64,000 nt of DNA, from contig JBKBNH010000002.1 of assembly GCA_046295395.1 (NCBI GenBank), positions 163,584 to 227,583 of the forward strand, given 5' to 3'. This DNA is from Flavobacteriales bacterium. Its GTDB lineage: Bacteria > Bacteroidota > Bacteroidia > Flavobacteriales_D > JBKBNH01. This document shows positions 2,568 through 60,800 of the stretch, piece after piece (the first letter of the stretch is position 1; each line of letters opens with the position of its first letter). The position numbers and the translations under genes are program-made. The notes below the pieces were generated by a model. The model saw only the letters and a program-made list of their open reading frames with translations, was not told where the DNA came from and ran no database searches.

Positions 2568-2568
2568 T

Positions 2569-3609: not shown

Positions 3610-3612
3610 AGT

Positions 3613-4240: not shown

Positions 4241-4544
4241 TGTTTTACGTTTTAAAATTACAAAAATTACTTTTCCATAAAGCAGGGTGTTTACTAAAAC
4301 CATTTGTAAGTAAAAAAACGCCCGAAGTTGTACTATGGAAAATACTAACTTTCGGGCATTTTAAGCGGAAACACAGGGATGGACAAATTTCTTTATTTTG
4401 ATTTTAATCGCTCGCAAGGAAAACCCTAATTTTTACTATGTTTTCCCTATATTGAAATTAGGGAATTCCCTAGCCGTTGTGCAATATTCTGCAGCCATGT
4501 TCAACATTTAACACAAGTGGTGGTTGGTGTAATTTTTAATACAT

Positions 4545-6159: not shown

Positions 6160-6211
6160 TGTATTACTTACTTTTGCCGCTTTAACACGTACAATATTTT
6201 AGAAAAGAAAC

Positions 6212-8177: not shown

Positions 8178-8248
8178 GGTCTCGTGGCCGAGTGGCTAGG
8201 CAGAGGTCTGCAAAACCTTGTACAGCGGTTCGAATCCGCTCGAGACCT
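8178..8248 (+). tRNA. tRNA-Cys (GCA)
   Basis: Acceptor stem GGTCTCG/CGAGACC. Anticodon loop cTGCAaa. T-arm GGTTCGAATCC. Discriminator t. CCA not encoded. Confidence 0.9.
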
Positions 8249-13549: not shown

Positions 13550-16500
13550 TTAACTAGCTGGTGCAAAGGTAATCAAATATTTGGTGCCTTTTTTAGAATT
13601 TACCTTTATCGTGCCGTCCAGTTGCTCTATAAGTGTATAAACAAGCTGTAGCCCGAGCGATGATGAGTTTTCTACATCAAAGTTTTTGGGTAGCCCTATT
13701 CCATTGTCCTCTATTCTTATTTGTATCTGGTTGTGTTCTTGTTTCAGGCTCAAGAATATTTCACCTTTGGCGTTGTTTGGAAAAGCATATTTGAGCGCGT
13801 TGGAAATTATTTCGTTGACAATTAATCCGCAAGGAATGGCCTGATCCAAAGAAACACGAATATTATCTATGTCTTTCACTAATTTAATGTTTGATGAATT
13901 AATGGCGTAAGTGTGAAAAAGATTGGTAATTAAATTATTGAGGTAGTCGGCAAAATTAACTTCCGAAAAATTTTTGGTTTGATACAGGATTTCGTGAATG
14001 AACGACATGCTTTTAATTCGGTTTTGCCCTTCTTTTAGTATACTGATGGTGTCTTTGTCGGTAACAAATGACGATTGCAAGTTAAGTATACTAGAAATTA
14101 CTTGTAGGTTGTTTTTCACCCTGTGGTGAACTTCTTTTAAGAGTATTTCTTTTTCCTTTAGTGATTCTAGAAGCTTAGTTTCTGCCGTTTTTTGTTCGGT
14201 TATATCGCGAATAATTACCAACACTTCTTTGTTGTTTATGTTTACATATCGGGCTTCAAAAAAGCCTTGTTTACCATTAACTTTAAGCGAATATTCGAAT
14301 GGGATTATTTCGTCTGTTTTAACCGCCTTTTTAATGTTTTTCAAAAATTGTTTACCCAGCTCTGGGTTAATAAGATCTGTTACTCTTCCGCCTATAAACT
14401 TCTCAGGTTTTATAGCAAGCTGATCTTCTGATTTGTAAAACACATCTAGATAGTATCCGTCTGCGGTCATTCTGAATATTAAATCAGGTAGCGCATTTAT
14501 CATTGCCTTGTTGTACTCTTCACTTTTTTTGAGTTTTATTTCGGCAACTTTTTTTTCTGTTATTTCGTGAATTAAGCCTGCTATTTCTATAATTTTTTGT
14601 CCTTTTACCCGAATGGGGGTTAAGAACATTTCTAGCCAGATTGGTTTACCGTATAATCCGTTTATACTACCCTGAAATTCTTGTACCTCACCATTTAAAG
14701 CGGTTAGGTAAATTTCTTTCATTGCCTTAAATTTATTGTTATTCATAAACGGTTTCAGGTATTCCAAAATTTTATCTCCGTTTTTAATATCAATATTTAT
14801 GTGTTTTTTCATTATGTCTATCAAGGCCGAATTGAACGATGTTAACTCCATGTTTTTATTCATGGTAAACATCATCATGTTTGAGGTATTCTCAAAGAAT
14901 GACTGAATTTTGGAAGATTGTTGTTTTACGAGTTCTTCGCTTTCTATTATTTTGGTTATATCTCTTAATACATCTCGCGAACCGACATATTTACCTTCTT
15001 CATAAACTGCCGTAGAAGACAGTTCTACAAATCGGTTATTTCCTTTTGCTGTAGTAATTTGAATGGTAAAGCGCTGTATAAATCCTTCTTTTCTGAGAAT
15101 TTTACTGTATTTAAGGCAATATTCAAGCGAATTGGGATGAACAAAGTCGTATAAATTTCCGGTGTGTACATTTTCGTTGAGTTCAAAAAGTTTTCTCGCT
15201 GCCTGATTTATGTCAATAAAATTATTTTTTTCATCCAACAGCAAAATAGCATCATACATATTTTCGAAAAGGCTACGAAACTTCTTTTCGCTTTCGATAA
15301 GTCCTTCTTCTGCTTTTTTCAATTCGGAAATATCTCTGGAAATTCCCATATATCCCACTATATTTCCTTTATTGTCCTTAATGGTAGTAGCGGACAAGTA
15401 TGAGGTAAAAAGTGTCTTATCTTTTCTAATATTAGTAATCTCTCCGAGAAATAAACCATGCTTGGTAATTGAACTTATTACTTTTTCAAAATCTTCGTAA
15501 TAATAATATAGGTCTGTGGCAGATAGGTTTATCATTTCTTCCTTGGTATAGCCAAATGCTAAAAGCGAAGAAGGACTTATTTGAGTTATCTTATTATTGA
15601 TATCGGTTGCCATAATCATGTCTAGAGAGGAATTAATCATGTTTTTTGTAAACTCTTGATTTTTAATTAATTCCTGCTGAGTTTTCTTATGATTCTCTAT
15701 TTCTTTGATAAGCTTTTTATTTGCCTCCTCGGCTAATTCCGCCCGTATAGTTTCGTCTTTTAGTTTTTTAGTTTGGGTTATATCTATGAGTGTGCCTTCT
15801 ATAAATGTGTCTTTTCCCTTTTCGTTTTTAACTATATAAACATTGTTTAAGGTAAAAATTTCTTTACCTGCTTTTGTTTTGTATCGTGCTTCGTAGTTAA
15901 ATAAAGATCGCTCTTTAAGTAATTTTTTTACGTAGTTATCTCTTTCTTTTTTAGAAAAATAAAAAGATTCTGATTTTACACTTTTCATTTCTTCGAAAGA
16001 CTTGTATCCAAAAATATTTGCAAAAGCAGTATTGCAAATTACCATTTCTCCATTAAGTCTAGTTCTGAAAACCCCCGTAATGTTGTTTTCAAAAAGACTT
16101 CGGTATCTTTCTTCTGATTCTTTGAGGTAATTTTTATAATGTGCTTCATCGGTAACATTACGCGCAATGCCAAAATTTCCAATGTGTTTTTTATTTACAT
16201 CGAATTGAGGAATAATTGTTTCTTCGATATAGATGTAATTAGAACTATTTCCCGGTAAAAAACGATAAGTGTGTTTTATTGGTTTTGTTGTATGCTTTAT
16301 GCTTTTAGAAATTTCTAAAATAGAGGATAAATCATTGGGATGATAGTATCTTATAAGTTTATTGGATTTTGAAAGGGTGATAAATTCGTCAACTGAAAAA
16401 CCAAATAATTGTTCTATATAAGGAGATACATAACGTATATATTTGTTACCCTTATCATCTATGGTAATATTGTAAACTACGTTATCTATGTTGTTAAGTA

Positions 16501-16897
16501 TAGTGGTTAGTTTTTCATTTGTTTCATTTATTTGTTTGAAAGCTTTTAAAGACTCTGAATTATCTATAATTCTGATTATAAAATAATCTTTTTTGTTTTC
16601 GTTAACAACGTTGATATGAAAATCAACCAAGCTTTTATTACCGTTAAAATCCGAAAGCAGTTTTACGCCTTTCCAATTTTTATAATTAATTAGTTGTTCA
16701 GTAATATCTTTAATATCGTTTTCATCTAAATGGATAAGGTTTTTTTCCCACCAGTTTTGGTTAAGTAAATTGTTTTCAGCACAAGCTAATAGCTTACACA
16801 CATAAGGATTAATAGCTAAAATTTTATAAGAATTCGCGTCAATAAGAAAAATAGCATCTGAAGAGGAACCGAAATATAAATTAAATTTAGACAGCAT
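13550..16897 (-). CDS. Multi-PAS/PAC sensor histidine kinase, HisKA_2 type
   Basis: About 890 aa of repeated PAS/PAC-like modules. H-box HHRVKNNLQVISSILNLQSS (HisKA_2). HATPase C-terminus. 22 nt upstream of the LytTR regulator gene. Confidence 0.85.
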   Translation of the reverse strand: MLSKFNLYFGSSSDAIFLIDANSYKILAINPYVCKLLACAENNLLNQNWWEKNLIHLDENDIKDITEQLINYKNWKGVKLLSDFNGNKSLVDFHINVVNENKKDYFIIRIIDNSESLKAFKQINETNEKLTTILNNIDNVVYNITIDDKGNKYIRYVSPYIEQLFGFSVDEFITLSKSNKLIRYYHPNDLSSILEISKSIKHTTKPIKHTYRFLPGNSSNYIYIEETIIPQFDVNKKHIGNFGIARNVTDEAHYKNYLKESEERYRSLFENNITGVFRTRLNGEMVICNTAFANIFGYKSFEEMKSVKSESFYFSKKERDNYVKKLLKERSLFNYEARYKTKAGKEIFTLNNVYIVKNEKGKDTFIEGTLIDITQTKKLKDETIRAELAEEANKKLIKEIENHKKTQQELIKNQEFTKNMINSSLDMIMATDINNKITQISPSSLLAFGYTKEEMINLSATDLYYYYEDFEKVISSITKHGLFLGEITNIRKDKTLFTSYLSATTIKDNKGNIVGYMGISRDISELKKAEEGLIESEKKFRSLFENMYDAILLLDEKNNFIDINQAARKLFELNENVHTGNLYDFVHPNSLEYCLKYSKILRKEGFIQRFTIQITTAKGNNRFVELSSTAVYEEGKYVGSRDVLRDITKIIESEELVKQQSSKIQSFFENTSNMMMFTMNKNMELTSFNSALIDIMKKHINIDIKNGDKILEYLKPFMNNNKFKAMKEIYLTALNGEVQEFQGSINGLYGKPIWLEMFLTPIRVKGQKIIEIAGLIHEITEKKVAEIKLKKSEEYNKAMINALPDLIFRMTADGYYLDVFYKSEDQLAIKPEKFIGGRVTDLINPELGKQFLKNIKKAVKTDEIIPFEYSLKVNGKQGFFEARYVNINNKEVLVIIRDITEQKTAETKLLESLKEKEILLKEVHHRVKNNLQVISSILNLQSSFVTDKDTISILKEGQNRIKSMSFIHEILYQTKNFSEVNFADYLNNLITNLFHTYAINSSNIKLVKDIDNIRVSLDQAIPCGLIVNEIISNALKYAFPNNAKGEIFLSLKQEHNQIQIRIEDNGIGLPKNFDVENSSSLGLQLVYTLIEQLDGTIKVNSKKGTKYLITFAPAS

Positions 16898-18432
16898 TAA
16901 GGTATATCGAGTTTCGGGGTAATTTTTAAACCGTCTAATTTATGTTCTATTCCATTTTTATACAACACAGTCATTATGGGAGTTCCATATTCATCATATT
17001 TTTTCCACTCTCCATCTTTATTTCCGTTTCTGTAAGAGCCCTCCCACATCACCTGTCCTGAATTATAGTAATACTTGTGCTTATTAATCGGTATTCCGTT
17101 TATATATTCTCCTTTAAAACTTAGTTTTCCATTATCAAAATAGTGTTCCCACACACCATGAAGCAAACCATCTCTGTATCCACCTATTTCTTTGTGATCA
17201 CCAAGCTCATAAAACCAATTTCCCTCTCTTACTCCACCAACATATTCTCCTTTAGTTATTACTGTTCCAAGAGAATCATATTCTATTACTTCTCCTTCTT
17301 CTCTTCCTTTTATAAAAGTTTCTTCTCGCCAAAGTTGTTTGTTAATATACCATTTTTTCCAAAGGCCATGGGGTAGATTATTAACATATTTTCCTTTCTG
17401 TTGAATCATCCCGTTTTTGTAATAAAAAATCCATTCTCCAACTTTATTTCCACTAGAAAAATCACCTTCAGATTGTAATTCACCGGTAGAAAAGTAATAT
17501 TTCCATCTACCTTCTTCTCTATCTAGCGAATCTCTTCTTCCTTGGGCAATCATAACATCATCTTTATAAAGATAAGTCACTAGCACTGTTTCTGTTGTAT
17601 CAAAATGCCTAAATATTCCGTGTTTTTTATCTTGTTTTAAACCTCCCAATATTTTAAGTTTACCGTTAGGATGGTATTCTCTATACAGTTCTAAAAATAT
17701 TGTTTCTTCAGATTCTTCATCAATAACACCTTCAGTAAATTTATCCATACTCTTCAGGCCGCCATCACTATTATATTGTTTAATCAATCCATCAATTTCT
17801 CCATTTTTAAAAGATCCCTCCCATTTTACCTTTCCATCAGGATAAAACTCTTTCCAAACTCCTGTTTTGCTTCCTTTCTCATCGTATCGATTAATTTTTT
17901 CTTCACTCCTTAAAAATCCGGCTAAATACGTCCTTAGAGTTATTATATTTCCGGTGGTGTCGTATTCTATTTCTTTGCCGTCTTTGTTGCCATCTTTGTA
18001 AATATAAGCAGTTTTAATCCTTCCATTTTGATGAAACTCAAAAGCTTCACCCTGTTTTACGTTGTTTATGTAATTTATTTTTTCTACCAAACAACCCAAG
18101 GTATCATATGTCCTAGAAACACCGTTTTTTTTATCTTCCTCGTAGTTTATTTCATACAAAAGTTGTTCATGTTCAGTATAAAAATACCAGATACCGGTTA
18201 GTTTGTGATTTATTCTGTTTCCTGCACTTTTTTTGTTTCCGTTGTCGAAATATGTAATCCAAAAACCTTCAGGTTTTCCATTTTTCATAATTCCTTCACT
18301 ACTTTTTACTCCATTAGGATAATAAAATACAGTATAACCATCAGAATTTATTTTCTGTGAAAAAGAAAATAAAGCAAAAAAAACAATTCCAAAACAAAAA
18401 ACGGTTTTCAACATATATCTATAAAAAATCAT
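16897..18432 (-). CDS. MORN-repeat (YwqK-family) exported protein
   Basis: Signal peptide. More than 15 tandem repeats of YxNGKxKxEGxYKNGKxDGxW type. Its stop overlaps the HK start (TAATG). Confidence 0.7.
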   Translation of the reverse strand: MIFYRYMLKTVFCFGIVFFALFSFSQKINSDGYTVFYYPNGVKSSEGIMKNGKPEGFWITYFDNGNKKSAGNRINHKLTGIWYFYTEHEQLLYEINYEEDKKNGVSRTYDTLGCLVEKINYINNVKQGEAFEFHQNGRIKTAYIYKDGNKDGKEIEYDTTGNIITLRTYLAGFLRSEEKINRYDEKGSKTGVWKEFYPDGKVKWEGSFKNGEIDGLIKQYNSDGGLKSMDKFTEGVIDEESEETIFLELYREYHPNGKLKILGGLKQDKKHGIFRHFDTTETVLVTYLYKDDVMIAQGRRDSLDREEGRWKYYFSTGELQSEGDFSSGNKVGEWIFYYKNGMIQQKGKYVNNLPHGLWKKWYINKQLWREETFIKGREEGEVIEYDSLGTVITKGEYVGGVREGNWFYELGDHKEIGGYRDGLLHGVWEHYFDNGKLSFKGEYINGIPINKHKYYYNSGQVMWEGSYRNGNKDGEWKKYDEYGTPIMTVLYKNGIEHKLDGLKITPKLDIP

Positions 18433-27430: not shown

Positions 27431-27955
27431 GTGACCTGTTTAAACAAAATATTGGTTTTAGTCCTATCCTTTGTGGTATTTAACACACGAGGGCAGCAGG
27501 ATTTTAAAACGAATAATAATCTTAAAGCAATTTATGTATACAATTTTACCACACTGGTTGATTGGCCTAAAGAATTTAAGCAAAACGATTTTGTGATAGG
27601 GGTGCTTGGCGATCAGGGTTTAGTGGATGTTTTGACACAAAAATATTCATCAAAAAATGTAGGCGCACAGCCTATAAAAATCAAAGCATACAAAAACGAG
27701 ACAGAAGTTGATCAGTGTCATATCTTGTTTATTGCCAACAGCCAGTCGGCAACCGTAACGAGGCTTTCAAAAAAACTGACCAAATACAGCACACTTATAG
27801 TAGCGGAGTCTGCAGGGGCACTAGAATCAGGGGCTTGTATTAATTTTACAGCAAAAGATAATAAATTAGCGTACGAATTGAGTAAATCAAACACAGAACG
27901 AATCAAATTAATATTGGGCAAAACCATATTAGAATTGGCGGTAAAAGTTAGTTAA
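27431..27955 (+). CDS. YfiR-like periplasmic regulator (DUF4154)
   Basis: GTG start plus a signal peptide. LKAIYVYNFTTLVDWP...CHILFI...LIVAESAGALESGACINF, which matches the YfiR pattern (LKAAFLYNFAKF.EWP ... INF). Confidence 0.65.
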   Translation: MTCLNKILVLVLSFVVFNTRGQQDFKTNNNLKAIYVYNFTTLVDWPKEFKQNDFVIGVLGDQGLVDVLTQKYSSKNVGAQPIKIKAYKNETEVDQCHILFIANSQSATVTRLSKKLTKYSTLIVAESAGALESGACINFTAKDNKLAYELSKSNTERIKLILGKTILELAVKVS

Positions 27956-28854
27956 TGAGCAAAAAGCTTTACATAGCGATCATATTTTGTTTACTGATGG
28001 TTTCAGGAGCTTATGCACAGTCTAAAAACTGGGAAAAAGCACTTAAGGCATATCAGGAAGAAAACTTTGATGACGCCATAAAGTTCAGTGATAATTCTAT
28101 TATGGATGATGCTGAAAGTAAAGACGCTTACACTTGGCATGTTCGTGGATTTATTTACAGAGCCGCACACAAAAAACTTGATGACAGCAGCCCAGCCTCT
28201 AAACTAAGAGAAACATCGATAGAATCCTTTCTCAAAAGTATTGAGCTTGATTCGAATAAAGAATTTGAAATTAAGAACAAAAGCGCAGTAATTAATTTAG
28301 CAAAAACCTATTTTAATGACGCCGTAAGAGCATTAAGCGCTGAAACTTTTGAAGACGCTATTGAATATTATGCCAAATACAAGGACGTTACCCGCCGGGT
28401 AGAGCCTGATTTCAGCTTTAAACAAACCGATATAGACTTTAACAACACCCTTGGCGCAGTATACCAAAACATATATGAAAATGATAAGGGCGCAAACCAA
28501 AATTTTATGCAAAAAGCCATTGATGTATATAAGACCACTATAGAAATAGACTCGCTTAACTATAATGCGAACTACAATATAGGGGTTTTATATTACAATC
28601 AGGGTGTAGATTTAATTTTGTCTATTGACCCGGAAGCACCACTTCCTATTGTAATAGAAACTCAAGAAATGTGTGCAGAGTTATTTATACGGTCTTTACC
28701 ATATATGAAAAGAGCGTATAATTTAAAACCAACAAATAGAGAAACCATCATTGGTCTTGCGGGCATTTATTTTAACTTGAATGATAACGAAAAGTCTAAA
28801 TTTTTTAGCGACCTTTTGAAGGAGGTAGAAGATAACGACTCACCAAACAGATAG
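27955..28854 (+). CDS. Secreted hypothetical protein (possibly helical, TPR-like)
   Basis: Signal peptide MSKKLYIAIIFCLLMVSGAYAQ. 1-nt overlap with the upstream gene. No confident family. Confidence 0.5.
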   Translation: MSKKLYIAIIFCLLMVSGAYAQSKNWEKALKAYQEENFDDAIKFSDNSIMDDAESKDAYTWHVRGFIYRAAHKKLDDSSPASKLRETSIESFLKSIELDSNKEFEIKNKSAVINLAKTYFNDAVRALSAETFEDAIEYYAKYKDVTRRVEPDFSFKQTDIDFNNTLGAVYQNIYENDKGANQNFMQKAIDVYKTTIEIDSLNYNANYNIGVLYYNQGVDLILSIDPEAPLPIVIETQEMCAELFIRSLPYMKRAYNLKPTNRETIIGLAGIYFNLNDNEKSKFFSDLLKEVEDNDSPNR

Positions 28855-31309: not shown

Positions 31310-32692
31310 ATGTTTGAAGACTTAAATTACATTACCATTCTCATCGCCATTGTGGTGGGATTTTTCTTCATTTTTGTATTAACCTTCATAAGAAGATATA
31401 GAAGGTGTCCTTCGGACAAAATTTTGGTTGTTTATGGCAAAGTAGGCGGGGGCTCAGCTAAGTGTATTCACGGAGGAGCGGCATTTATATGGCCGCTTAT
31501 ACAAGATTATTCCTATTTGGATTTAACACCGATTTCTATCGAGGTGAACCTTGCTAATGCACTCTCCAAACAAAACATTCGGGTTGATGTACCCTCTCGT
31601 TTTACCGTAGGTATTTCCACAGAGCCTGTAATTATGAACAATGCTGCAGAGCGTTTGTTGGGATTAAAACAACAGCAAATCTACGACATAGCCAGAGATA
31701 TCATTTTTGGTCAGTTGAGGTTAGTTGTTGCCACCATGGATATAGAAGAAATTAATAGCAATAGGGATAAATTTTTGGCAAACGTGTCTGCCAACGTGGA
31801 GGCAGAGCTTAAAAAAATAGGCCTCCGCCTAATTAACGTAAACGTAACCGACATTAAAGATGAATCCGGCTATATCGAAGCATTAGGCAAGGAGGCTGCA
31901 GCTAAAGCCATCAACGATGCCAGACAGAGCGTAGCAGAGAAAAACAGAGACGGCTCCGTGGGAGAGGCCAATGCCGTACAAGAGCAGCGGGTAAAGGTAG
32001 CCCAAGCTAACGCTACAGCAGTAGAAGGAGAGAACCTCTCGAAAATATTAATTGCTAATTCTGATGCTTTAAGACGAGAAAAGGAGGCCGAAGCTGAAAA
32101 AATAGCCATTGCCGCTGAAAAAGTACAAACAGCCAAAGCCCTCGAAGAGTCTTATGCAGCAGAAAGAGAAGCAGAAACAGCCAGGGCACAAAGAGACAAA
32201 GCCTCTCAGGTCGCAGACGTTATAGTTCCTTCTCAAATCGAAAAAGAAAGAATAGAAATACAAGCCGAAGCGCAGGCAGAGCAAATAAGAAGAATTGCAA
32301 AAGGAGAGGCCGACGCAATCTTATTTAGAAAACAAGCCGAAGCACAGGGATTACTCGAAATTCTTACTAAACAAGCCGAAGGTCTGGACCGAATTGTGAA
32401 AGCCGCAGGAAATAATTCCAGAGATGCCGTCCTATTGCTTATAGCAGATAAGTTGCCAGAAATTATTAAAACACAAGCCGAAGCAATTAAAAACATAAAA
32501 ATTGATAAAGTAACCGTGTGGGAAGGAGGAACAAATGCAGATGGCAAGACATCTACAGCAAACTTTATCTCAGGTTTATACAAATCTGTTCCGCCGCTTG
32601 ACGACATGTTTAAAATGGCAGGAATGGAATTGCCATCGTATTTAAAAGGAAAAACAGAAGACCCAGCAAACAATAATGACCAAGCCGAATAA
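31310..32692 (+). CDS. Flotillin-like SPFH (band 7) domain protein
   Basis: N-terminal TM. SPFH domain (KILVVYGKVGGG...NVNVTDIKDESGYIEALGKEAAAKA). Long Ala/Glu-rich coiled coil. Confidence 0.85.
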   Translation: MFEDLNYITILIAIVVGFFFIFVLTFIRRYRRCPSDKILVVYGKVGGGSAKCIHGGAAFIWPLIQDYSYLDLTPISIEVNLANALSKQNIRVDVPSRFTVGISTEPVIMNNAAERLLGLKQQQIYDIARDIIFGQLRLVVATMDIEEINSNRDKFLANVSANVEAELKKIGLRLINVNVTDIKDESGYIEALGKEAAAKAINDARQSVAEKNRDGSVGEANAVQEQRVKVAQANATAVEGENLSKILIANSDALRREKEAEAEKIAIAAEKVQTAKALEESYAAEREAETARAQRDKASQVADVIVPSQIEKERIEIQAEAQAEQIRRIAKGEADAILFRKQAEAQGLLEILTKQAEGLDRIVKAAGNNSRDAVLLLIADKLPEIIKTQAEAIKNIKIDKVTVWEGGTNADGKTSTANFISGLYKSVPPLDDMFKMAGMELPSYLKGKTEDPANNNDQAE

Positions 32693-35600
32693 AATAAATA
32701 GTTCAATAAAAAGAGCCTTGATTAATCTAATCAGGGCTTTTGTTTTTATTGGCCTAGCATGCGGACAAGCACAGCACAGTATTAAGTTCGACAACATCTC
32801 CCTGAATGAAGGGCTCTCTCAGAGCACTATTTCTGCAATAATTCAGGACTCGCAAGGCTACATGTGGTTTGGCACACAAGACGGATTAAATCGTTACGAC
32901 GGATACAGATTCAAAATATATAAACACGACCCAGATATTTCAACCTCCATCTCCGGAAATTTTATAAAATGTATAATGGAAGACGGAGACTATCTTTGGA
33001 TAGGAACCGAAACAGGGGGGGTAAATCGTTATGAAAAAAGCAGAGATGTTTTCCGAACATTTGATCATATAGACCAATTAAGACACTCTGCTGTTACCGC
33101 TCTTGCCAAAGATAAAAGCGGTAAGATATGGATAGGGACAGATGATAATGGATTGATAAGTTTTTCTCCAAAAGAAGGAAGAGTAGAACATTTTAACGAA
33201 AACAACGGGCTAATGTCCAACAACATTAAGGGGCTTAAATTTTTACCCGAAGGATTTTTGTTAATCGGCCAGCTAGATGGCCAATTACAATATTTGAATG
33301 TAAAGGAAAACAAACTTAAAACTGTAAAGGACAACAAAATATACGGCTCAAATTTTTATTCGTTCGAAACTTCTAAAAATGGGCAAACCCTAGTCGGAAC
33401 AGATAGAGGAGTAATTACTTTGCAAATAGAAAATAACGAACCGACCATAAAAAAAAGAATCTATCCGGTAGAACAAGCCTCTTCTCTTTTACTTCAGAAC
33501 GATTCAACCCTTTGGGCAGCCACAGAAGGGTTTGGCTTATTTAAAATTGATCTGAACAAATCCAAAACAAATAATTACAGATATGACCCGTTGAATAGAA
33601 AGAGTATTGCCGAAAACCTCATTTTCAGCGTATTTCAAGACAGGAGCGGCTGTATTTGGATAGGCACAAACAACGGGCTAAGTAAGTTCGACCCTATTAA
33701 GCAATTTTTCAACCACATAGCACCCGAGCCCGACAATCCTAAAGGACTAAACGACAAAACAATCTGGGCAATAGCTAAAGACAAACGAAACCGGCTTTGG
33801 GTGGCCACGAGCAAGGGGCTTAGCCGAGTAGATGAAAACTCTTTGGTTGCTGTAAATTATCCATTTGTTGGCAACAACCCCAACTTGCCCAACAACAACA
33901 ATGTATACAGTGTTCTACCAGAAGATGATTTTCTGTGGCTTGGAACGGTAGATGGATTTTATAAACTCAATTTTTCAAACGACAAGCTAGAAAAGGTAAA
34001 CCTTGGAGAGTTTGAGCAAACCGCAGACAAAAGAATTTACCACATAACAAAAGACAAAAATGGCAACATATGGCTTGGCGCTAAAGAAGGTCTATGTTTT
34101 TATAACGTAAAAGACAGAACAACGGCACATTTTAAGAGCAGCCCATCAAAAAACAAATCCCTTCCGGGAAGAACGGTAAGAGCCGTTCATGTGGACAGCA
34201 AGGGAAACTTGTGGGTCGGAACCGAAGGCGGAGGTCTGGGGTTTGTTTCAAGCGATCAGATTACAACACAGCCAAAAGAACTTTCTTTTGATGTGTATAG
34301 CGCAAGTTCGGCAGACTATAAAGCCTTAAACAACAATATTATAACAACAATTTTTGAAGACCAAGACGGCACGCTTTGGCTTGGCACATACGGCGGCGGA
34401 TTAAATGCGTTAAACCCAAAAACAGGAAAATTCAGGCGTTACACGGAAAAAGAAGGCCTGTCAAACAATGTTGTTTATGCCATTCTTTCCGAGAACGAAA
34501 ATGCACTTTGGATGAGCACCAACTTTGGTTTGTCAAGGCTAGAAAAAGCAACCGGAGCCTTTAAAGTTTTTCTAGAAAAAGACGGCCTTCAGAGTAACGA
34601 GTTTAATATAGGCGCCGCATATAGAGCGAAAGATGGAAAATTATATTTTGGTGGAATAAACGGGTTAAATAGCTTTTATTCGACACAAATAACAGAAAAC
34701 AGAATTCCACCGGAAGTATTAATTACCGGAATTTTATTGTTTAATCAACCTATAAAAATAGGCCCGTCATCGCCACTTCAAACGGACGTTTCATTTGCGC
34801 AAGAAATTGCTCTAAAACACAGACAAAATAATCTTACAATAGAATACGCAGCACTACACTTTTCTAATTCGGCAAACAATAAATACAAGTTTATTTTAGA
34901 GGGATACGAGGAACAAATGAATTATGTGAGTGATGTAAAAAGAGCACATTACAGTAATCTTCCTCCCGGAGAATACACGTTCAAAGTGTTCGGGTCTAAT
35001 AGCGACGGTATTTGGAGCCAATCTCCGGCAAAACTGCGGATAGTAATACTTCCTCCCTATTATGCAACTTGGTGGTTTAGAGGAATTTTAGGCATTGTCT
35101 TGCTTTTAGTTGTTTATACCTTTTACCAGCTAAGGATAAGAACCATCCGTCTTCAAAAACAAAAACTATCCGAACTAGTTGAAAAACGAACAGCAACCAT
35201 CAGAAAACAAAAAGAAATGATGGAAGAACAAAAACTACAGCTTGAACTGGAAAAAGAAAAAAGCGACAAACTGCTAATAAATATTCTTCCGGCAGAAACA
35301 GCAGAGGAACTAAAAAATCACGGAAAAGCAACAACAAGAACATATCGCTTAGTCACAGTAATGTTTACAGACATTATAGGGTTTACCCAAATTGCCGAAA
35401 AAATGAATCCGGTAGATCTCGTAAAAAGACTAGATGAGTATTTCAGGGAGTTTGACAAAATAATAGAGCGAAATAAAATTGAAAAAATAAAAACAATTGG
35501 TGATTCATATATGGCCGCAGGCGGAGTGCCAATAAGAAATAAAGAAAACCCCGTGTATACAGTTTTGGCGGCACTTCAGATTCAAAAGTTAATGCGGGAT

Positions 35601-36572
35601 AAAAAAGAAGAAGCGATAACCAAAGGAGAAGCAGACCCTTGGGATCTCAGGGTGGGCATTCATACAGGAGATGTAATTGCAGGAGTAATCGGAGAAAAGC
35701 GAATTGCATACGACATTTGGGGCAACACAGTAAACGTGGCAAGTCGGATGGAAAGCAGCGGAATGCTCGGAAAGGTAAACATATCGGGGGCAACCTACGA
35801 ACACATAAAACCCTATTTTGATGTAGTATACAGGGGTAAGATTATGGCCAAAAATAAAGGCCATATCGACATGTACTTTGTTGAGCGAATTAAGCCGGGG
35901 CTTTCGGAAGACGAGGGGGGCACTGTTCCAAACGCTAAGTTTTGGGAATACCTGAATTTACATGTGTTCAGCAGTATAAACTACCACAAGGCAGAAAGGC
36001 ATATTATGAAAATATTGGTAGAAAAATTATCACCAAATCTTCATTATCATGGCATTCATCATACGGCAGATGTTGTTCAGGCTGTTGAAAGAATTGCCAT
36101 AATGGAAGGGGTGGTAGACGAACATATATTTGTTTTGAAATCAGCAGCAACATACCATGACGCCGGTTTTGTAGAACAATACGAACACAACGAACCTGTA
36201 GGGGCAAAAATGGCCGAAGAAATCTTGCCTCTTTATGGATACACAAAAGAACAAATCCAACAGGTAAAAGAGTTAATTTATTCAACCATTATACCCCATA
36301 ACCCCAAAAATAAACTGGAAGAAATTATCTGCGATGCAGATTTAGACTATCTGGGAAGAGATGATTTTCACGATATAGCCGATTCTTTAAGGCGTGAATT
36401 GAGAGATCATGGAAAATTAAACAGTGATAGACTTTGGGATGAGATTCAGGTGAAATTTTTAACCGCACATAAATACTTTACAGACTCTGCAAAAAGACTC
36501 AGAGATCCAAAAAAACAAAAGCATCTGGAAGAAATAAAACAACGCTTAATAGAAAACAAGTACAACGATTAG
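32676..36572 (+). CDS. Fusion of a periplasmic two-component-regulator propeller/Y_Y_Y sensor with a class III adenylyl cyclase and a C-terminal HD domain
   Basis: Signal peptide. Repeated WIGTxxGLxxYD propeller blades. Y_Y_Y region. TM (WWFRGILGIVLLLVVYTFYQL). Coiled coil. CHD domain (VTVMFTDIIGFT...KIKTIGDSYMAAGG...YDIWGNTVNVASRMESSG) with Lys/Asp at the adenine-specifying positions. HD motif set H..HH, YHDAGF, CDADLDYLGRDDF. 17-nt overlap with the flotillin gene. Confidence 0.85.
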   Translation: MTKPNKINSSIKRALINLIRAFVFIGLACGQAQHSIKFDNISLNEGLSQSTISAIIQDSQGYMWFGTQDGLNRYDGYRFKIYKHDPDISTSISGNFIKCIMEDGDYLWIGTETGGVNRYEKSRDVFRTFDHIDQLRHSAVTALAKDKSGKIWIGTDDNGLISFSPKEGRVEHFNENNGLMSNNIKGLKFLPEGFLLIGQLDGQLQYLNVKENKLKTVKDNKIYGSNFYSFETSKNGQTLVGTDRGVITLQIENNEPTIKKRIYPVEQASSLLLQNDSTLWAATEGFGLFKIDLNKSKTNNYRYDPLNRKSIAENLIFSVFQDRSGCIWIGTNNGLSKFDPIKQFFNHIAPEPDNPKGLNDKTIWAIAKDKRNRLWVATSKGLSRVDENSLVAVNYPFVGNNPNLPNNNNVYSVLPEDDFLWLGTVDGFYKLNFSNDKLEKVNLGEFEQTADKRIYHITKDKNGNIWLGAKEGLCFYNVKDRTTAHFKSSPSKNKSLPGRTVRAVHVDSKGNLWVGTEGGGLGFVSSDQITTQPKELSFDVYSASSADYKALNNNIITTIFEDQDGTLWLGTYGGGLNALNPKTGKFRRYTEKEGLSNNVVYAILSENENALWMSTNFGLSRLEKATGAFKVFLEKDGLQSNEFNIGAAYRAKDGKLYFGGINGLNSFYSTQITENRIPPEVLITGILLFNQPIKIGPSSPLQTDVSFAQEIALKHRQNNLTIEYAALHFSNSANNKYKFILEGYEEQMNYVSDVKRAHYSNLPPGEYTFKVFGSNSDGIWSQSPAKLRIVILPPYYATWWFRGILGIVLLLVVYTFYQLRIRTIRLQKQKLSELVEKRTATIRKQKEMMEEQKLQLELEKEKSDKLLINILPAETAEELKNHGKATTRTYRLVTVMFTDIIGFTQIAEKMNPVDLVKRLDEYFREFDKIIERNKIEKIKTIGDSYMAAGGVPIRNKENPVYTVLAALQIQKLMRDKKEEAITKGEADPWDLRVGIHTGDVIAGVIGEKRIAYDIWGNTVNVASRMESSGMLGKVNISGATYEHIKPYFDVVYRGKIMAKNKGHIDMYFVERIKPGLSEDEGGTVPNAKFWEYLNLHVFSSINYHKAERHIMKILVEKLSPNLHYHGIHHTADVVQAVERIAIMEGVVDEHIFVLKSAATYHDAGFVEQYEHNEPVGAKMAEEILPLYGYTKEQIQQVKELIYSTIIPHNPKNKLEEIICDADLDYLGRDDFHDIADSLRRELRDHGKLNSDRLWDEIQVKFLTAHKYFTDSAKRLRDPKKQKHLEEIKQRLIENKYND

Positions 36573-41553: not shown

Positions 41554-44502
41554 ATGCAAAGAGTTCTCGGACTATTTTTTTTACTTTTTCTAGTAAAACA
41601 TACACAAAGTCAAACCATTAAGTCTGTTCATCAGGAGCAAGCAGAAGAATATACTTCTTTGGGTTTTGACGATATGTATTACGAGTCCAATAATCAGGCG
41701 GCTACGATACAAAAATCAGCAAGAAATTGCTCTGCAAACAAAGTTGTATACGGCTGGCACCCTTACTGGAGTAATGGATTGCAAATAAATTACGATTGGA
41801 ACCTATTATCGCATTTGTGTTATTTTTCTTACGAAGTAGATGCCAATACGGGAAACGCCATTAACACCTATAATTTTGCCACTACGCCGGTTGTGACTAC
41901 TGCGCTAAACAATGGAGTGAAGGTACACCTGTGTGTTACGCTTTTTTCAAATCATACTACTTTTTTTGGTAATCCCACAGCTCGACAAACGCTTATTACA
42001 AACCTGATTAATATGATACAGGCAAGGGGTGCGCATGGGGTAAACATTGACTTTGAAAGCATGGCATCGTCTCAGTCGGCAAATTACACGGCATTTATGA
42101 TTGACCTATGCAACCAAATGCACGCTGCCATTCCGGGTTCAGAAGTAACTACCGCACTTCACGCAGTAGATTGGAGCGGTTTTTACGACATGGCTGTTTT
42201 AAATAATTATGTAGACTACTTCATGATTATGGGCTACGATTATTATTGGAGTGGAAGCAATCCCGCCGGGCCTAATGATCCGCTGTTTCATTTTGGCAGC
42301 ACCTACGATTACAATTTATCTAAGTCTACTACTTACTACCAGCATCAAGGGGCATCTTTATCAAAACTAGTGATGGGGCTTCCTTACTATGGCAGAGACT
42401 GGCCGGTGAGCTCCTTTTCGCTGCCCGCGCCAACCACGGGCACAGGTGTTTCAAGAACCTACAAGGTAGTGAAGGACAATACCAGCGGTAATTTTTCACC
42501 GACAAATCGAAACTACGAATCGGCAAGCAGAAGCACCTATTACAACTATACGGCCTCGGGAGTAATGAGGCAATGCTTCATTTCTGAAGAAAATGATTTG
42601 CGTGAAAGAATGGATTTTATAAACAAAAGAGGGCTTGCCGGAGTGGGAGTCTGGGCCTTGGGCTACGATGATGGTTACACCGAACTTTGGGATGCAATTG
42701 CCGAGTATTTTTCAGATTGTAGTGAAACGCCTTGTTCGGGAGTTTTAACAGATATAGGCGGAGGGCCCTTGAAAAATTATTACAACAACGAAAACTATAC
42801 ATTTACGCTTTCTCCTCCCGGCGCACAAAGTATCACAGTAAATTTTTCTTCGTTTAGCACGGAGGCAAATTACGATTTTCTCCATATTTATGATGGGCCA
42901 TCTACAGCTTCGCCTCAAATTCCCGGCAGTCCTTTTCACGGAACAAATAGCCCTGGCTCATTCACAAGTTCTTCAGGGCATTTAACCTTCAGATTTATTT
43001 CAGACAATGCCACTGTAAGCCCTGGGTGGAATGCAACTTATACTTGCCAGCAAGACAACATCCCGCCCACTACGGCGGTTTTAGCACCAAACGGATGGGT
43101 TACCGAGGATTTTACGGTAAACTTTACCGATGCGGATAATGTTGGGGGCTCGGGGGTAGACAAGAGTTTTTATCAAGTGTTGGAATTTGAGGGCACAGAA
43201 TGGCGCGCAAATACACAAAGAGGGTTCTTTAGCGACAACTTCGATCAAGCGGCGATACATCCCGATTGGACTAGTGTCACGGGAACTTGGCAAATTACAA
43301 ATGGCTATTTACACCAGTCAAATCAAGGTGTCGGAAACACCAACATTTATGCTTACCTAAAGCAAGATTTATCCAACCGTTATCTATACCACTGGGCCGG
43401 AAAAATGGATGGAACAGGCTCTAACAGAAGAGCGGGCTTTCATTTTTTCTGCGATAATCCAACTTTGCCTAATAGGGGAAACTCATACTTTGTATGGTTC
43501 AGGCTCGATAATAACCGCATACAAATATACAAGGTAGTAAACGACAATTTTGGGACACCGGTTTTGGATATACCCTACTCATTTTCTAATCAGTGGACCG
43601 ACTATAAAGTAACCTACGACCGCATTTTGGGTTCAATGAATGTGTATGTAAACGATATTTTGGCCGCTCAGTGGACTGACGGAGCTCCCTATCAAACGGG
43701 AGATTATATTTCTTTTAGAAGCGGCGATTGTGATTTCATGGCCAACAACTTAAAAGTATACCGAACAAGATTTCCATCGGTAAATGTTACCGTGGGGCTC
43801 GGGTCTTCTAACGAGATTCGCTATGAAAACATTAATCCGACTCAGCCCGCCGGACGAATAAAATCTATTGTTCAGGATGTTGCCGGAAACCTTTCCGTGG
43901 TTGCATCACAAGATGTTAATGTAGACTGGACACCTCCGGTGATGAGCTTTATACACGATGGGTTATCACAAGACGTGGACACCATATTTGCTCCCGATGC
44001 AGCAGAAGCAAACTGGAGTTTTTTAGACACCAACAGTCATGTGGCCGAATACTTTTTTTCAATGGGTACTCAGCCTTTGTTGGACGATGTTTACCCATAC
44101 ACATCAAATATGCTATCTACATCGGCTTCAGTTAGCTCAGGAATTCTTCAATCAGGAACTTGGTACTATTTCAACATAATTGCCGAAAACAATGCCGGGC
44201 TCAGAGATACTTTAAGCTCAAATGGATTCAGGTTTGTTTCACTTTTAGGTGTTGGCGAATTGGTGTTAACCGAAATTCCCCGATTATTTCCTAATCCTGC
44301 GCAGACATCTGCCACGGTAGGCTCGAAAAAAAATATTTCAGTAATTACTGTTTATGATGTGCTGGGCAGACAGGTTTTTTCTTCAACACCCAATGGAACC
44401 TCGGCACATCTTCCAGTGTATTTGTGGGCAGACGGAATTTATGTGGTAAGAATATTTTCAGAAGGCAGAGAGATTGACTTAAAACTGATTAAAAAACAGT
44501 AA
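41554..44502 (+). CDS. GH18-like glycoside hydrolase with CUB-like and lectin-like domains, secreted by T9SS (type-A CTD)
   Basis: Signal peptide. GH18 (beta/alpha)8 region whose catalytic motif is HGVNIDFE in place of the canonical DGxDxDWE. CUB-like domain (YDFLHIYDGPS...GWNATYTC). Por_Secre_tail C-terminus (LFPNPAQTSATV...VYDVLGRQVF...GIYVVRI). Confidence 0.8.
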   Translation: MQRVLGLFFLLFLVKHTQSQTIKSVHQEQAEEYTSLGFDDMYYESNNQAATIQKSARNCSANKVVYGWHPYWSNGLQINYDWNLLSHLCYFSYEVDANTGNAINTYNFATTPVVTTALNNGVKVHLCVTLFSNHTTFFGNPTARQTLITNLINMIQARGAHGVNIDFESMASSQSANYTAFMIDLCNQMHAAIPGSEVTTALHAVDWSGFYDMAVLNNYVDYFMIMGYDYYWSGSNPAGPNDPLFHFGSTYDYNLSKSTTYYQHQGASLSKLVMGLPYYGRDWPVSSFSLPAPTTGTGVSRTYKVVKDNTSGNFSPTNRNYESASRSTYYNYTASGVMRQCFISEENDLRERMDFINKRGLAGVGVWALGYDDGYTELWDAIAEYFSDCSETPCSGVLTDIGGGPLKNYYNNENYTFTLSPPGAQSITVNFSSFSTEANYDFLHIYDGPSTASPQIPGSPFHGTNSPGSFTSSSGHLTFRFISDNATVSPGWNATYTCQQDNIPPTTAVLAPNGWVTEDFTVNFTDADNVGGSGVDKSFYQVLEFEGTEWRANTQRGFFSDNFDQAAIHPDWTSVTGTWQITNGYLHQSNQGVGNTNIYAYLKQDLSNRYLYHWAGKMDGTGSNRRAGFHFFCDNPTLPNRGNSYFVWFRLDNNRIQIYKVVNDNFGTPVLDIPYSFSNQWTDYKVTYDRILGSMNVYVNDILAAQWTDGAPYQTGDYISFRSGDCDFMANNLKVYRTRFPSVNVTVGLGSSNEIRYENINPTQPAGRIKSIVQDVAGNLSVVASQDVNVDWTPPVMSFIHDGLSQDVDTIFAPDAAEANWSFLDTNSHVAEYFFSMGTQPLLDDVYPYTSNMLSTSASVSSGILQSGTWYYFNIIAENNAGLRDTLSSNGFRFVSLLGVGELVLTEIPRLFPNPAQTSATVGSKKNISVITVYDVLGRQVFSSTPNGTSAHLPVYLWADGIYVVRIFSEGREIDLKLIKKQ

Positions 44503-57808: not shown

Positions 57809-60800
57809 TTAATCCACCTCATTGAAGTAGCCATTTACGAGATTCTTATAGTAAGGTTTCAAACTAGGCGGAATTGTTTTAAGAAGTTCAATTTCTTTTT
57901 CTTTTTTTCTTTTGTACTCTAGAAATTCTTTAGGGTCGGAAGCAATATCTTCGGCAGATTTCCCTTCTCGTTTGTTGTCAAATTCTCTTTCTCTTTCCGC
58001 TTTTTCATGCTCCAGAAGCCGGGTCATGATGTCGCGCTGTCTTTTCATGGTATTGTTGTCGATGCGTTTGTTCACGATGTCTTCTTCTAGTTTTTCCATC
58101 TCTTCAGCAATTTTTTTCAGGCTATTGCCTCTTCCGGTGCCGTCCTGATTTAACTCTTGGGCCAGACGCTGTAATTGTTCTCTGAGTGCGGCTTGTTGTG
58201 CTGCCAGTTTTGCTAGTCCTTCGCTCATTGAGGGCTGTCCTTCCCCCTCGCCTTCTCCGTTTGCGCCCCCGCTGCCGCCTTTTCCTCCTAGTTTTTGTCC
58301 ACCGGATTTGTTACTTTCACCTTCTTCTCCCTCGCCTTTTTTCCCCGGACTTTTTCCGCCTTCCTGTTCCCCTTTTTCCATCTGTTGTTTCATTTTTTCG
58401 AGTTGCTGCGAAAGTTGTTGCTGCATATCTTTTAGCGTAGGGATACTCATGGGCTTGGTTTTGGAAGACCCGCTTCCACCCGGCTTGTCGCACGAGCCTG
58501 AGCCCGATGCCATGCTCATGGAGTTTTGCATTTGTTCCATCGCTTCGTTCAACATGAGAGCCAGATTGTTAGCATGCATCATGATACTTTGTTGTTTGCG
58601 CCGCACTTCGGAAGTTCTTCTTTCTGTTAGGTCTTCCGGGAGTTTGCTGAAATAGCGCTGAATTTCGCCCATTTCGCGAGAGATGTATGAACTCAGTTGT
58701 GGTACTCGCTTAGCAAGGGCTTCGAGTGAGTCGGCCAAAACTTTTGAATCGTTTTGCAGTTTACGTTGTTGTTGACCCAGGCCCACGTAAGCGGGGTCGC
58801 GATCGTTCAGAAATTTGAATTTTTCCATCAGCTCTTCCTGCTGAAAGCTAAATTCGATGAGGTTGGCAAGCAGTAAGCGCAGCGACTTCAGGTCTTCTTG
58901 TATACTTTGCTGCTGATCTTCCCGTTGCATTTGTTTCATCTTATTAGCCATTTCCTGCATTTTTTCAGCGGCCTTTTTTTGGTTTTGTGCTGCTTTTTTC
59001 TGATTGTTTTTTTGCAGGTTGTCCATGCTGTTTTGCTGCTCTTGATCTATCTGCTGGTTTTCTTCCTTAAAGTCGTCGGTAGTTCGTTTGTTTTCGAGTT
59101 CTTCGTTTAGTTGCAGCAATTCTTTTTGATCTTCTTTCAGTTTATCAAACTTATCATTTAGTGCTTTTTGTTTCTGTTCAGCCTGTTCTTTAGAAAACGC
59201 CTTATTTTCGATTTGCTTGCTGAGTTCTTCTTGCTGTTTTGCTAAAGCTTCTGTTTTTTGAATTAGGTTTTCCAGTTTTTGGTCAAACTCTACCTGCTTG
59301 AAAATTTCGAGGCTACGATCAAGTTGTTTTTTCAGGCCTTCGTTAGAGAAGTCAAAATTTTCTAGCTTTTCCAGAAGTTTATCTTTATTCAGCTTATCCA
59401 TAAGTTGCTGAAGTTCTTCGAAAAGTTTTTTCATTTCGTCACTCATCAACTCATCAAAGAGTTTTTGAAGCTCTTCTTGTTTTTTCAGTAGTTCGGGGTC
59501 TGGTTCGGTAAAGTCTTTTTGCTGGTTGAAGTTTTTCTCGGTCTGTTGTTTTATTTTTTCCAAGTCGTTCTGAACAGACTGGTGCTTGTTCAGCAAGTCC
59601 TCTAGTTTTGCTCGGTCTTGCCAATCGGTGTTTTTCTTTTGCAGCAGGTCGTTTTTCAGATTTTGAAAATCTTTTTGCAGTTGCGAAGCCTTGCTTAGCG
59701 TAGAAGCCAAGTTTTCTTTAATTTCCTTATTCCCTTTTTCGGTGTTTTCGGCTATTTCATCCAGCGAAGGGGCTTGAAAAACTTTTACGGGCGAGCGGCA
59801 AACTTTAGCACCATTCACCCCGTCGTTGTCCCACACCTGAAAGAAATATTCCACAGACTCTTCGGGTTTTAGCTCGAGTTCGTCCATTTTCCAGTAGTAG
59901 AAAAACTCTTCCCGATTAAAAGAGCGATTCAGTTTTATTTCTATCGATTTAAAAGGCTCTGCTTTCCGGTCTCTGTTAAGTTTTCGGAAGTTGAAGGTAA
60001 GCCGGGTAAAGCCATAGTCATCTGAAATGGCTCCACTAAAATACCTTTGTTTTACTGAGTTACTGTCTATTTTTTCTTCTACGGTAATTCGAGGATATTC
60101 GTCTTTAACCACGGTTAAGGAGTATTTAACCGTGTCCGGATTTTTTACCAAATTATTCTCGGTGTGTATAGCATATCGGATAGAGCGATGTGCCTTGTAA
60201 GCCGACTCAAATGTTTTGTCCGAAACTTTTTTTACAACGAGTGCAGAGTCTCCTGCCTGAAGGTATAAGTTTGCCGTGTTTACAGTAAGAAACCGCCAGT
60301 TTATTTGTGTGCCCTCAGGGATAATTAAATCTCCGGTATTTTTCAGAATTTCTTTTTGTCTGTTTATGTAAGCCGGATAAACCAGTTGCGCCTCAAAATT
60401 CATAAGTACAGGCTTGGGTAAAACGACAAGCTCAAAGGTTGATGAATGAACTTCGTCTGCTTTAAGAATGAATTTTTGATTGACGTTTACATTTCTGAAT
60501 CGGTAGGAGAAGGTGGTTTTATTCTGTTTGTCAAGTTTAAAATTGTTTTCGTCTATTTGCACGTATACGCGCTCGGGAATTTCTTTTCCGCTAAGAGTCA
60601 CTTCCAGTAAAAAATCCTCGTTTTGAATCACCGTTAACTCATCATTCAGCACTTCAAACTTGAATGGGGCAGGGGTTTCGAAATAGGTTCCGTGATACAT
60701 TAGCCGTTTTGTTGGCTCTTTTATCATGTCGGAGTTGTATATCCATATACCCAAAAACAGTAATAGGGGCAACAAAAAGTACTTAAGCTGCCGGCGGTTT

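Follow-up and report, generated by a model that had tools for sequence, protein, structure and literature searches.

A predicted ligand-gated adenylyl cyclase with a candidate HD-type cAMP phosphodiesterase domain in a single polypeptide of Flavobacteriales

Introduction

Can one bacterial protein both synthesize and degrade cyclic AMP (cAMP)? The question is raised by a gene for a protein of 1298 aa located in a stretch of 64,000 nucleotides (hereafter, the window) from the genome of a Flavobacteriales bacterium (assembly GCA_046295395.1, contig JBKBNH010000002.1, positions 163,584 to 227,583 of the forward strand). An annotation made earlier from the sequence of the window alone, referred to here as the original prediction, described the product as a fusion of the periplasmic propeller sensor of hybrid two-component systems (HTCS), an adenylyl cyclase (AC) and a C-terminal HD phosphohydrolase, and raised the idea that the protein might make and break its own second messenger. 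The present analysis supports the original prediction and leaves very little doubt about the domain identities of the protein. The reading favoured here, with a probability of about 0.55, is that of an adenylyl cyclase gated by a ligand and equipped with its own cAMP phosphodiesterase (PDE) of the HD type.

The adenylyl cyclase domain

The cyclase domain matches the Pfam family Guanylate_cyc (PF00211) with 174.7 bits against a cut-off of 21.9 (E 1.9e-51). Searches of the PDB with this domain retrieved AC8 (1.8e-55) and Cya (5o5k, 4e-41), and alignments were obtained with both halves of mammalian ACs. Alignment to the C1 and C2 domains of AC8 and AC9 places the metal-binding Asp pair at D899 (FTDIIGF) and D943 (IGDSYM). 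The adenine-specifying pair K939/D1013, the transition-state pair N1020/R1024 and the pyrophosphate-binding Arg R992 are likewise present, all in one chain, so that the catalytic set, including the two Asp residues whose absence would have spoken against the original prediction, is complete. Among 177 cyclase domains of the family, the key residues are kept in 159-175, with K939 found in 175 and D1013 in 170.

In class III cyclases the Lys/Asp pair confers adenine specificity, with cAMP as the product. Because this pair is kept in the window protein, as had been claimed from the sequence, cAMP is the expected product of the cyclase. Judged by its residues, the domain is a competent class IIIa adenylyl cyclase, predicted to act as a homodimer. 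A reading of the protein as a defence system of the Pycsar or CBASS type was considered and dropped, since the Lys/Asp purine pair, the periplasmic sensor and the housekeeping context speak against it.

The C-terminal HD domain

The original prediction assigned a complete H/HD/D metal-binding motif set to the C-terminal 200 aa. Searches for an HD domain with the single window sequence yielded none in Pfam, in NCBIfam or, by phmmer, in the PDB, so that one refuting condition of the original prediction, failure at HD-domain thresholds, was technically triggered. Taken as proof that an HD domain is absent, this failure was overturned by family-level tests, and the assignment was rescued at the level of the family, the profile and the structure. 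In a word-indexed search the tail has 1577 homologues, many of them, at 53-78% identity, with a precomputed PF01966 assignment and several also with PF00211; 21 of 30 aligned homologues (52-78% identity) match PF01966 individually, with a best E-value of 6.7e-9. Profile A2, which is more diverse than alignment A1, retrieved 2pq7 (5.7e-9), YedJ (1.5e-6), BH2835 (4.8e-4) and YpgQ (2.2e-3) from the PDB. The AlphaFold2 model of the domain, obtained with alignment A1, is all-helical (mean pLDDT 95.2, pTM 0.90); in a Foldseek search it was closest to 2pq7 and YpgQ, followed by PDE4 and PDE5, and the modelled catalytic core resembles class I PDEs in its fold.

The motif set was found to be complete. 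By alignment to YpgQ, the residue roles of which were taken from the literature (PMC8177086), the metal ligands are H1129, H1161, D1162 and D1222, and H1125 corresponds to the phosphate-contacting His (H25 of YpgQ). In 147 modules from cluster representatives, both fused and free-standing, every metal ligand and ~20 further positions are 90-100% conserved, and all of the highly conserved residues are kept in the window copy. These include Y1124, H1125, H1129, H1161, D1162, G1164, E1173, D1220, D1222 and G1227, as well as E1241, W1254, Q1258, F1261 and H1265, with conservation of at least 93% for E1173, D1220 and the last five. In the Q1258-x-x-F1261 element, Gln is conserved in 93% and Phe in 97% of the modules. 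Accordingly, the C-terminal domain is an intact hydrolase of the HD superfamily and falls within its PDEase-like corner.

In some free-standing HD proteins of profiles A2 and A3, the Gln of the W-x-x-x-Q-x-x-F motif (codon 36447..36449 in the window) is replaced by Glu, or by Leu or Thr, for example in WLEFEITF. It is pure speculation that, if Q1258 contacts the base, a Q/E switch could mark preference for cAMP or cyclic GMP (cGMP).

The linker between the cyclase and HD domains contains invariant P, N and F residues in alignment A1, and free-standing HD proteins begin after it, at profile position ~37. A conserved linker confined to fused forms suggests a defined coupling of the two catalytic domains.

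Single-sequence searches revealed no connection between HD domains of this clade and the YpgQ/YedJ group, and the similarity seen with profile A2 is significant. By its first motif and by the single-sequence searches, the clade is separate from YpgQ/YedJ.

Association of the HD clade with cyclases and cyclic nucleotide-binding domains

An exhaustive hmmsearch with the HD profile against 1.84 billion cluster representatives yielded 5712 matches at E<=1e-3 and 1156 at E<=1e-30, and the best 148 representatives were used for a survey of architectures. A class III cyclase is fused to the HD domain in ~104 of them (~70%), with the HD domain mostly C-terminal and sometimes N-terminal. The cyclase-HD unit is preceded by diverse sensors, namely propeller/Y_Y_Y, TPR, 7TMR-DISM, MASE2, receiver, PAS and AAA-TPR modules or a bare transmembrane (TM) anchor. 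Fusions with domains binding cyclic nucleotide monophosphates (cNMPs) were found in four representatives: HD-cNMP_binding, HD-cNMP_binding-SpoIIE (two proteins) and MFS-HEAT-cNMP_binding-HD. Free-standing HD proteins of ~197 aa, starting with Met at the domain boundary, make up 32 of the 148.

Five free-standing HD genes had sufficient flanking DNA, and in three of these the HD gene lies 8-63 nt downstream of a co-directional class III cyclase gene. In loci L088 and L090 (Table 1) the window protein is split exactly at the cyclase/HD junction. Locus L087 carries sensor, cyclase, HD and cNMP-binding phosphatase functions on four consecutive genes, and its propeller protein matches the periplasmic part of the window protein with an E-value of 9e-60. 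Loci L081 and L082 combine a separate cyclase gene and HD gene with a gene for a HEAT-cNMP_binding protein.

At least 573 loci of the HD module were found in species-representative genomes, and the best 80 of these were used for comparison of related loci. A recurrent sensor-less variant or paralogue of ~512-528 aa, consisting of a 'WW'-TM anchor, a coiled coil, the cyclase and the HD domain, is encoded in 11 loci (L046, L051, L055, L057-L059, L062, L063, L067, L068 and L072); no propeller coding is present upstream, and the variant is genuine. The proteins of L050 and L056, 402 aa long, have no TM segment and also lack upstream propeller coding. Other short ORFs (L003, L071, L074 and similar ones) are effects of start codons or frameshifts under the ORF rule used. 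Database entries of the '233 aa' and '274/325 aa' types were rejected as free-standing HD proteins, their N-termini lying inside the last cyclase strands, and are truncated calls of the cyclase-HD gene. Such entries (P0001, P0004, P0009 and others) begin at internal Met codons and may be confused with small HD proteins.

Proposed function and alternative explanations

Fusions and operons repeatedly link the clade to the synthase of a cyclic nucleotide and to its receptor domain, and the clade has a PDE-like fold; the HD domain is therefore most simply explained as the phosphodiesterase of the messenger. Precedents are AtCN-PDE1, a cGMP phosphodiesterase of the neighbouring clade (PMC6692503), and class I PDEs, with which the clade shares its set of metal ligands (PMC8177086). 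The protein would be a homodimeric, single-pass membrane receptor. By analogy to BT4663, an extracellular ligand, possibly a glycan fragment, would bind to the periplasmic dimer of double propellers and Y_Y_Y domains, and a conformational change would reach the cyclase via the TM helix and the coiled-coil/cyclase-transducer segment. The activated class IIIa cyclase dimer, the residues of which point to competence, would convert ATP to 3',5'-cAMP, and the tethered metal-dependent HD domain would hydrolyse cAMP to 5'-AMP. With one polypeptide making and breaking the messenger, the signal could be local and transient, i.e., self-limiting, or the two activities could be reciprocally switched. The make-and-break idea put forward earlier falls short of proof, but it has become the best-supported reading because members of the HD clade occur, in many different architectures, in fusion with or next to cyclases and cNMP-binding domains.

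A number of results weigh against a cAMP phosphodiesterase coupled to its own cyclase. The window protein gives no match to PF01966, either whole (E<=1) or as its C-terminal 221 aa (E<=10). No PDEase_I match was obtained in Pfam for 30 members of the clade at E<=0.1, and the second His of the class I PDE motif HDxxH is absent from the window protein (HDAGF). The conserved Q1258-x-x-F1261 may correspond to the Gln/Phe purine clamp of PDEs, but the C-terminal sub-profile A3 gave no PDE matches in favour of this. The closest bacterial relatives with assays, YpgQ and YedJ, are (d)NTP pyrophosphohydrolases, though with very low kcat/KM (PMC8177086); two of the five free-standing HD genes have no cyclase nearby; and genes for cNMP-binding proteins were detected nowhere in the 64-kb window and in only one of the 80 related loci, in a search with a small home-made hidden Markov model of limited sensitivity.

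Membership of the clade in class I PDEs by sequence was rejected on the basis of the missing PDEase_I match and of an hhalign comparison between A1 and an approximate sequence of PDE4D (probability 3%, only the YH..H..DVV motif aligned). Class I PDEs of the PDB were matched by profile A2 with E-values of 0.02-1, PDE9A and PDEB1 among them with 0.02-0.1, and the matches span no more than the first two motifs. The resemblance of the fold is retained.

A competing explanation is that the HD domain is a nucleotide pyrophosphohydrolase similar to YpgQ/YedJ, or another nucleotide phosphohydrolase, inactive towards 3',5'-cAMP. Its substrates could be ATP or dNTPs, cleaved to NMP and pyrophosphate, or 2',3'-cNMPs, or an adenine nucleotide that is linear or polyphosphorylated, with a role in tuning the local supply of substrate or in processing a different nucleotide. 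Such an activity agrees with the nearest solved relatives by sequence, 2pq7, YedJ, BH2835 and YpgQ (5.7e-9 to 2.2e-3), and with the resemblance of the clade motif DADLDxLG to the YedJ-type DADrLDaiG; Mn-dependent (d)NTP pyrophosphohydrolase activity has been reported for YpgQ and YedJ (PMC8177086, PMC6692503), and a rather non-specific hydrolysis of 2',3'-cNMPs is known from HD domains of other families (PMC13262624 and references therein). However, the kcat/KM of the YpgQ NTPase is as low as 281 M-1 s-1 (PMC8177086), and AtCN-PDE1, the plant orthologue of YpgQ/YedJ, is a cGMP-stimulated cGMP phosphodiesterase sensitive to 3-isobutyl-1-methylxanthine (IBMX) (PMC6692503), so that NTP hydrolysis may not define the group. 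Moreover, the Arg of HDxxHxxRV is replaced in the clade (HTxDV), and the consistent fusion or adjacency to cyclases and cNMP-binding domains is left unexplained. We consider this explanation unlikely.

The HD domain could also be mainly regulatory or structural, serving as a feedback sensor that binds nucleotide or metal, or as a dimerisation module, without meaningful turnover. Degenerate enzymatic domains are commonly used as allosteric sites in proteins of cyclic di-GMP (c-di-GMP) signalling, and the conserved cyclase-HD linker suggests tight mechanical coupling. Such a role is nevertheless quite improbable: conservation of the metal ligands and the other positions described above is the signature of an active enzyme, and an allosteric role towards a cyclase in cis is not open to the free-standing 197-aa copies. 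The reading as a cyclase with its own cAMP phosphodiesterase remains the preferred one.

For the clade at large, the broader proposal appears evenly balanced. According to it, the HD clade would be an unrecognised, widespread class of bacterial 3',5'-cAMP phosphodiesterases, structurally the closest prokaryotic counterpart of class I PDEs and hard-wired, by fusion or operon coupling, to class III adenylyl cyclases; the cyclase-HD unit would be a make-and-break cassette akin to GGDEF-EAL, and cNMP-binding PP2C phosphatases would be one type of effector.

Degradation of cAMP in bacteria is attributed mainly to metallophosphoesterases of the CpdA type, and no bifunctional cyclase/phosphodiesterase for cAMP was found in the literature searched. 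If the proposal is true, a new enzyme class is involved in bacterial cAMP turnover, the make-and-break-in-one-protein design of c-di-GMP and (p)ppGpp extends to cAMP, and the pharmacologically important class I PDE fold has a compact (~200 aa) prokaryotic relative. In Crocinitomicaceae/Vicingaceae, abundant Flavobacteriales of aquatic habitats in which, to our knowledge, cAMP signalling is essentially unexplored, extracellular sensing of the HTCS type would then be linked with cAMP and perhaps also with PP2C partner-switching.

Periplasmic sensor and signal transfer

Analysis of the periplasmic part showed nine Reg_prop stretches (Pfam, E 5.1e-53), and the length of this region gives room for two propellers. 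It matched the sensor domain of BT4663 (4a2l, E 3.5e-115) as well as 3v9f and 3ott. The assignment to the HTCS-type periplasmic module is thereby confirmed by homology; of its description as an oligosaccharide-sensing module, the sensing part follows from the same homology, and an oligosaccharide ligand is suggested by analogy. Matches in Pfam to a histidine kinase (HisKA/HATPase), a receiver or an AraC-type DNA-binding output were absent from the protein, which, judged by its domains, shares the sensor with HTCS and is not itself an HTCS.

As described originally, one TM helix, identified by a hydropathy scan, is followed by a coiled coil. The stretch between the TM helix and the cyclase is charged and heptad-like, with a weak HNOBA coiled-coil match at aa 832-879 (Pfam). 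The segment LLINILPAETAEELK at its end is cyclase-transducer-like and aligns to the segment before C2 of AC8 and AC9 and to the start of the Cya chains 5o5k and 4p2f.

A gene for a secreted GH18 protein (chitinase-like, 982 aa) with a CUB domain and a C-terminal sorting domain of the type IX secretion system is located at 41554..44502 (+), 5 kb downstream of the sensor gene, and two divergent metabolic genes, for a short-chain dehydrogenase/reductase (SDR) and urocanase, lie between them. A chito-oligosaccharide is a conceivable ligand of the sensor.

Integrity of the gene, distribution and annotation

All motif strings named in the original prediction, VTVMFTDIIGF, IKTIGDSYM, YDIWGN, HYHGIHH, YHDAGF and CDADLDYLGRDDF, are present in the translation. 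It was considered whether the fusion could be an artefact of assembly, frameshift or gene calling joining two separate genes. A cyclase gene with the HD gene 8 nt later is a real arrangement in other organisms, and public protein sets hold many truncated calls of the cyclase-HD gene (the '233 aa' type). Nevertheless, the window ORF has no interruption, an identical protein is encoded on an independent contig and a near-identical one in a metagenome-assembled genome (MAG) of NCBI, collinear ORFs of ~1300 aa occur in the genomes of ~50 species, and the cyclase-HD linker is conserved. The collinear orthologues and independent contigs effectively refute an artefactual fusion.

Collinear full-length (~1300-aa) orthologues were found in ~50 of the 80 related loci, and the cyclase-HD architecture, with at least 573 species genomes, is not rare. 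The records of the 80 loci are labelled Crocinitomicaceae, Vicingaceae, Fluviicola, Crocinitomix, Lishizhenia, Taishania, Brumimicrobium or unclassified Flavobacteriales; unrelated names occur in a few of the MAG titles, which probably belong to mislabelled bins.

The identical protein is encoded on a Logan contig, and the window protein falls into a cluster of at least 90% identity with NCBI MFN3916532.1, labelled 'adenylate/guanylate cyclase domain-containing protein [Flavobacteriales bacterium]'. The label of the JGI cluster consists of three generic COG names, including 'ligand-binding sensor domain-containing protein' and 'class 3 adenylate cyclase', and other homologues of the tail are labelled 'predicted metal-dependent HD superfamily phosphohydrolase'. 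No description of the cyclase-HD fusion or of this HD clade was found in the literature searched (full text). The claim that the architecture corresponds to no named family holds, as the NCBI and JGI labels name its parts only: the building blocks are known and the make-and-break logic has precedents (GGDEF-EAL, Rel/SpoT), and the combination is without a named or characterised family.

Genomic context

The cyclase-HD gene is the last of a co-directional run of genes for DUF4154, TPR, SpoIIE, NfeD-like and SPFH proteins (Table 1). Genes for TPR and SpoIIE proteins lie directly upstream of the cyclase gene in 10 of the 80 loci, among them L001, L016, L027, L029-L032 and L049. The NfeD-like/SPFH pair is shared with L002 only and probably entered the SpoIIE-cyclase arrangement by insertion. 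The PP2C domain of the window is 43.5% identical (E 1e-81) to that of the HD-cNMP_binding-SpoIIE fusion P0167, which hints, as a lead, at PP2C partner-switching signalling in the same cAMP network.

Elsewhere in the window, genes for a multi-PAS histidine kinase of the HisKA_2/HWE type (1115 aa) and then a MORN-repeat protein (511 aa) are located at 13550..18432 (-), within a stretch of low guanine-cytosine content at 14-20 kb (0.30-0.32 vs ~0.38-0.46 elsewhere in the window). An AT skew of -0.40 at 58-60 kb coincides with an ORF of 1151 aa at 57809..61264 (-), the sole Pfam match of which is DUF4175. A tRNA gene at 8178..8248 (+) is the sole Rfam match at the gathering threshold in the 64 kb.

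Table 1. Coordinates of the cyclase-HD gene, its parts, the neighbouring genes of the window and selected related loci
Feature	Positions	Strand	Remarks
Whole ORF, sensor adenylyl cyclase with C-terminal HD domain	32676..36572	+	ATG start, uninterrupted, 1298 aa plus stop
Putative signal peptide or membrane anchor, aa 1-33, MTKPNKINSSIKRALINLIRAFVFIGLACGQAQ	32676..32774	+	Suggested by reading of the sequence and by the hydropathy scan
Periplasmic Reg_prop beta-propeller region, aa ~35-725	32778..34850	+	Pfam and match to 4a2l
Y_Y_Y (Ig-like) domain, aa 729-792	34860..35051	+	Pfam PF07495, E 2.7e-15
Single TM helix, aa 798-816, WWFRGILGIVLLLVVYTFY	35067..35123	+	Hydropathy scan
Cytoplasmic coiled coil/signalling helix, aa ~820-888, ends in LLINILPAETAEELK	35133..35339	+	Weak HNOBA match
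Class IIIa adenylyl cyclase catalytic domain, aa 889-1070	35340..35885	+	Pfam PF00211, E 1.9e-51
Cyclase-HD linker, aa 1071-1100, ..IKPxLS..G.G..PN..F..	35886..35975	+	Conserved, fused forms only
HD-superfamily phosphohydrolase domain, aa 1101-1298	35976..36569	+	Family, profile and structure level
YfiR-like DUF4154	27431..27955	+	
TPR protein	27955..28854	+	
Membrane sensor-(weak HAMP)-SpoIIE/PP2C phosphatase, 617 aa	28867..30720	+	Pfam SpoIIE, 7.8e-18
NfeD-like protein, 195 aa	30717..31304	+	
SPFH/Band 7 (flotillin-like) protein, 460 aa	31310..32692	+	Overlaps cyclase start by 17 nt
Locus L088, Reg_prop-Y_Y_Y-cyclase (1101 aa), then HD (201 aa)	1082..5001		HD gene 8 nt after cyclase gene
Locus L090, Reg_prop-Y_Y_Y-cyclase (1101 aa), then HD (201 aa)	1687..5606		HD gene 8 nt after cyclase gene
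Locus L087, propeller, Y_Y_Y-cyclase, HD, cNMP_binding-SpoIIE	1371..7097		Four consecutive genes
Loci L081/L082, HAMP-cyclase, then HD			Beside HEAT-cNMP_binding protein

Comparison with known systems

Similar to BT4663 (4a2l/4a2m), 3v9f and 3ott, the window protein has a periplasmic double Reg_prop propeller and a Y_Y_Y domain followed by a single TM helix. In HTCS of Bacteroides these lead to a histidine kinase, a receiver and an AraC output, whereas the window protein continues with a coiled coil, a class III cyclase and an HD domain, and no polysaccharide utilization locus was seen adjoining its gene.

The cyclase has the canonical residues and the upstream coiled-coil/transducer segment of class IIIa membrane ACs (Cya/Rv1625c type, 5o5k/4p2f, and mammalian AC). 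It differs from the Cya/Rv1625c-type enzymes, which have an anchor of six TM helices, in the presence of one TM helix and a large periplasmic sensor, and from class IIIa membrane ACs in the additional C-terminal HD domain.

Class I PDEs use an H...HD...D ligand set (PMC8177086), and the first motif of the clade, Y-H-x3-H-x2-D-V, is like theirs; however, the HD domain is ~200 aa long, in contrast to ~330 aa in PDE1-11. All four solved members of the YpgQ group have H-D-x2-H-x2-R-V, whereas the window protein has Y-H-G-I-H-H-T-A-D-V, without R before V. The clade also differs from YpgQ, YedJ, 2pq7 and AtCN-PDE1 in its own conserved C-terminal region W..Q..F..H.Y.T..R..K, and from the YpgQ/YedJ group in being overwhelmingly fused to or encoded beside cyclases.

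Domains for synthesis and degradation of one messenger are combined in single polypeptides in GGDEF-EAL and GGDEF-HD-GYP proteins for c-di-GMP and in Rel/SpoT for (p)ppGpp. The window protein resembles them in the pairing of synthesis with predicted degradation under the control of a sensor in one polypeptide, and it resembles Rel/SpoT and HD-GYP proteins further in that the degrading domain is an HD domain. Unlike in these systems, the messenger would be cAMP, the synthase is a class III cyclase, the HD domain belongs to a different clade, and the opposing activities are predicted ones.

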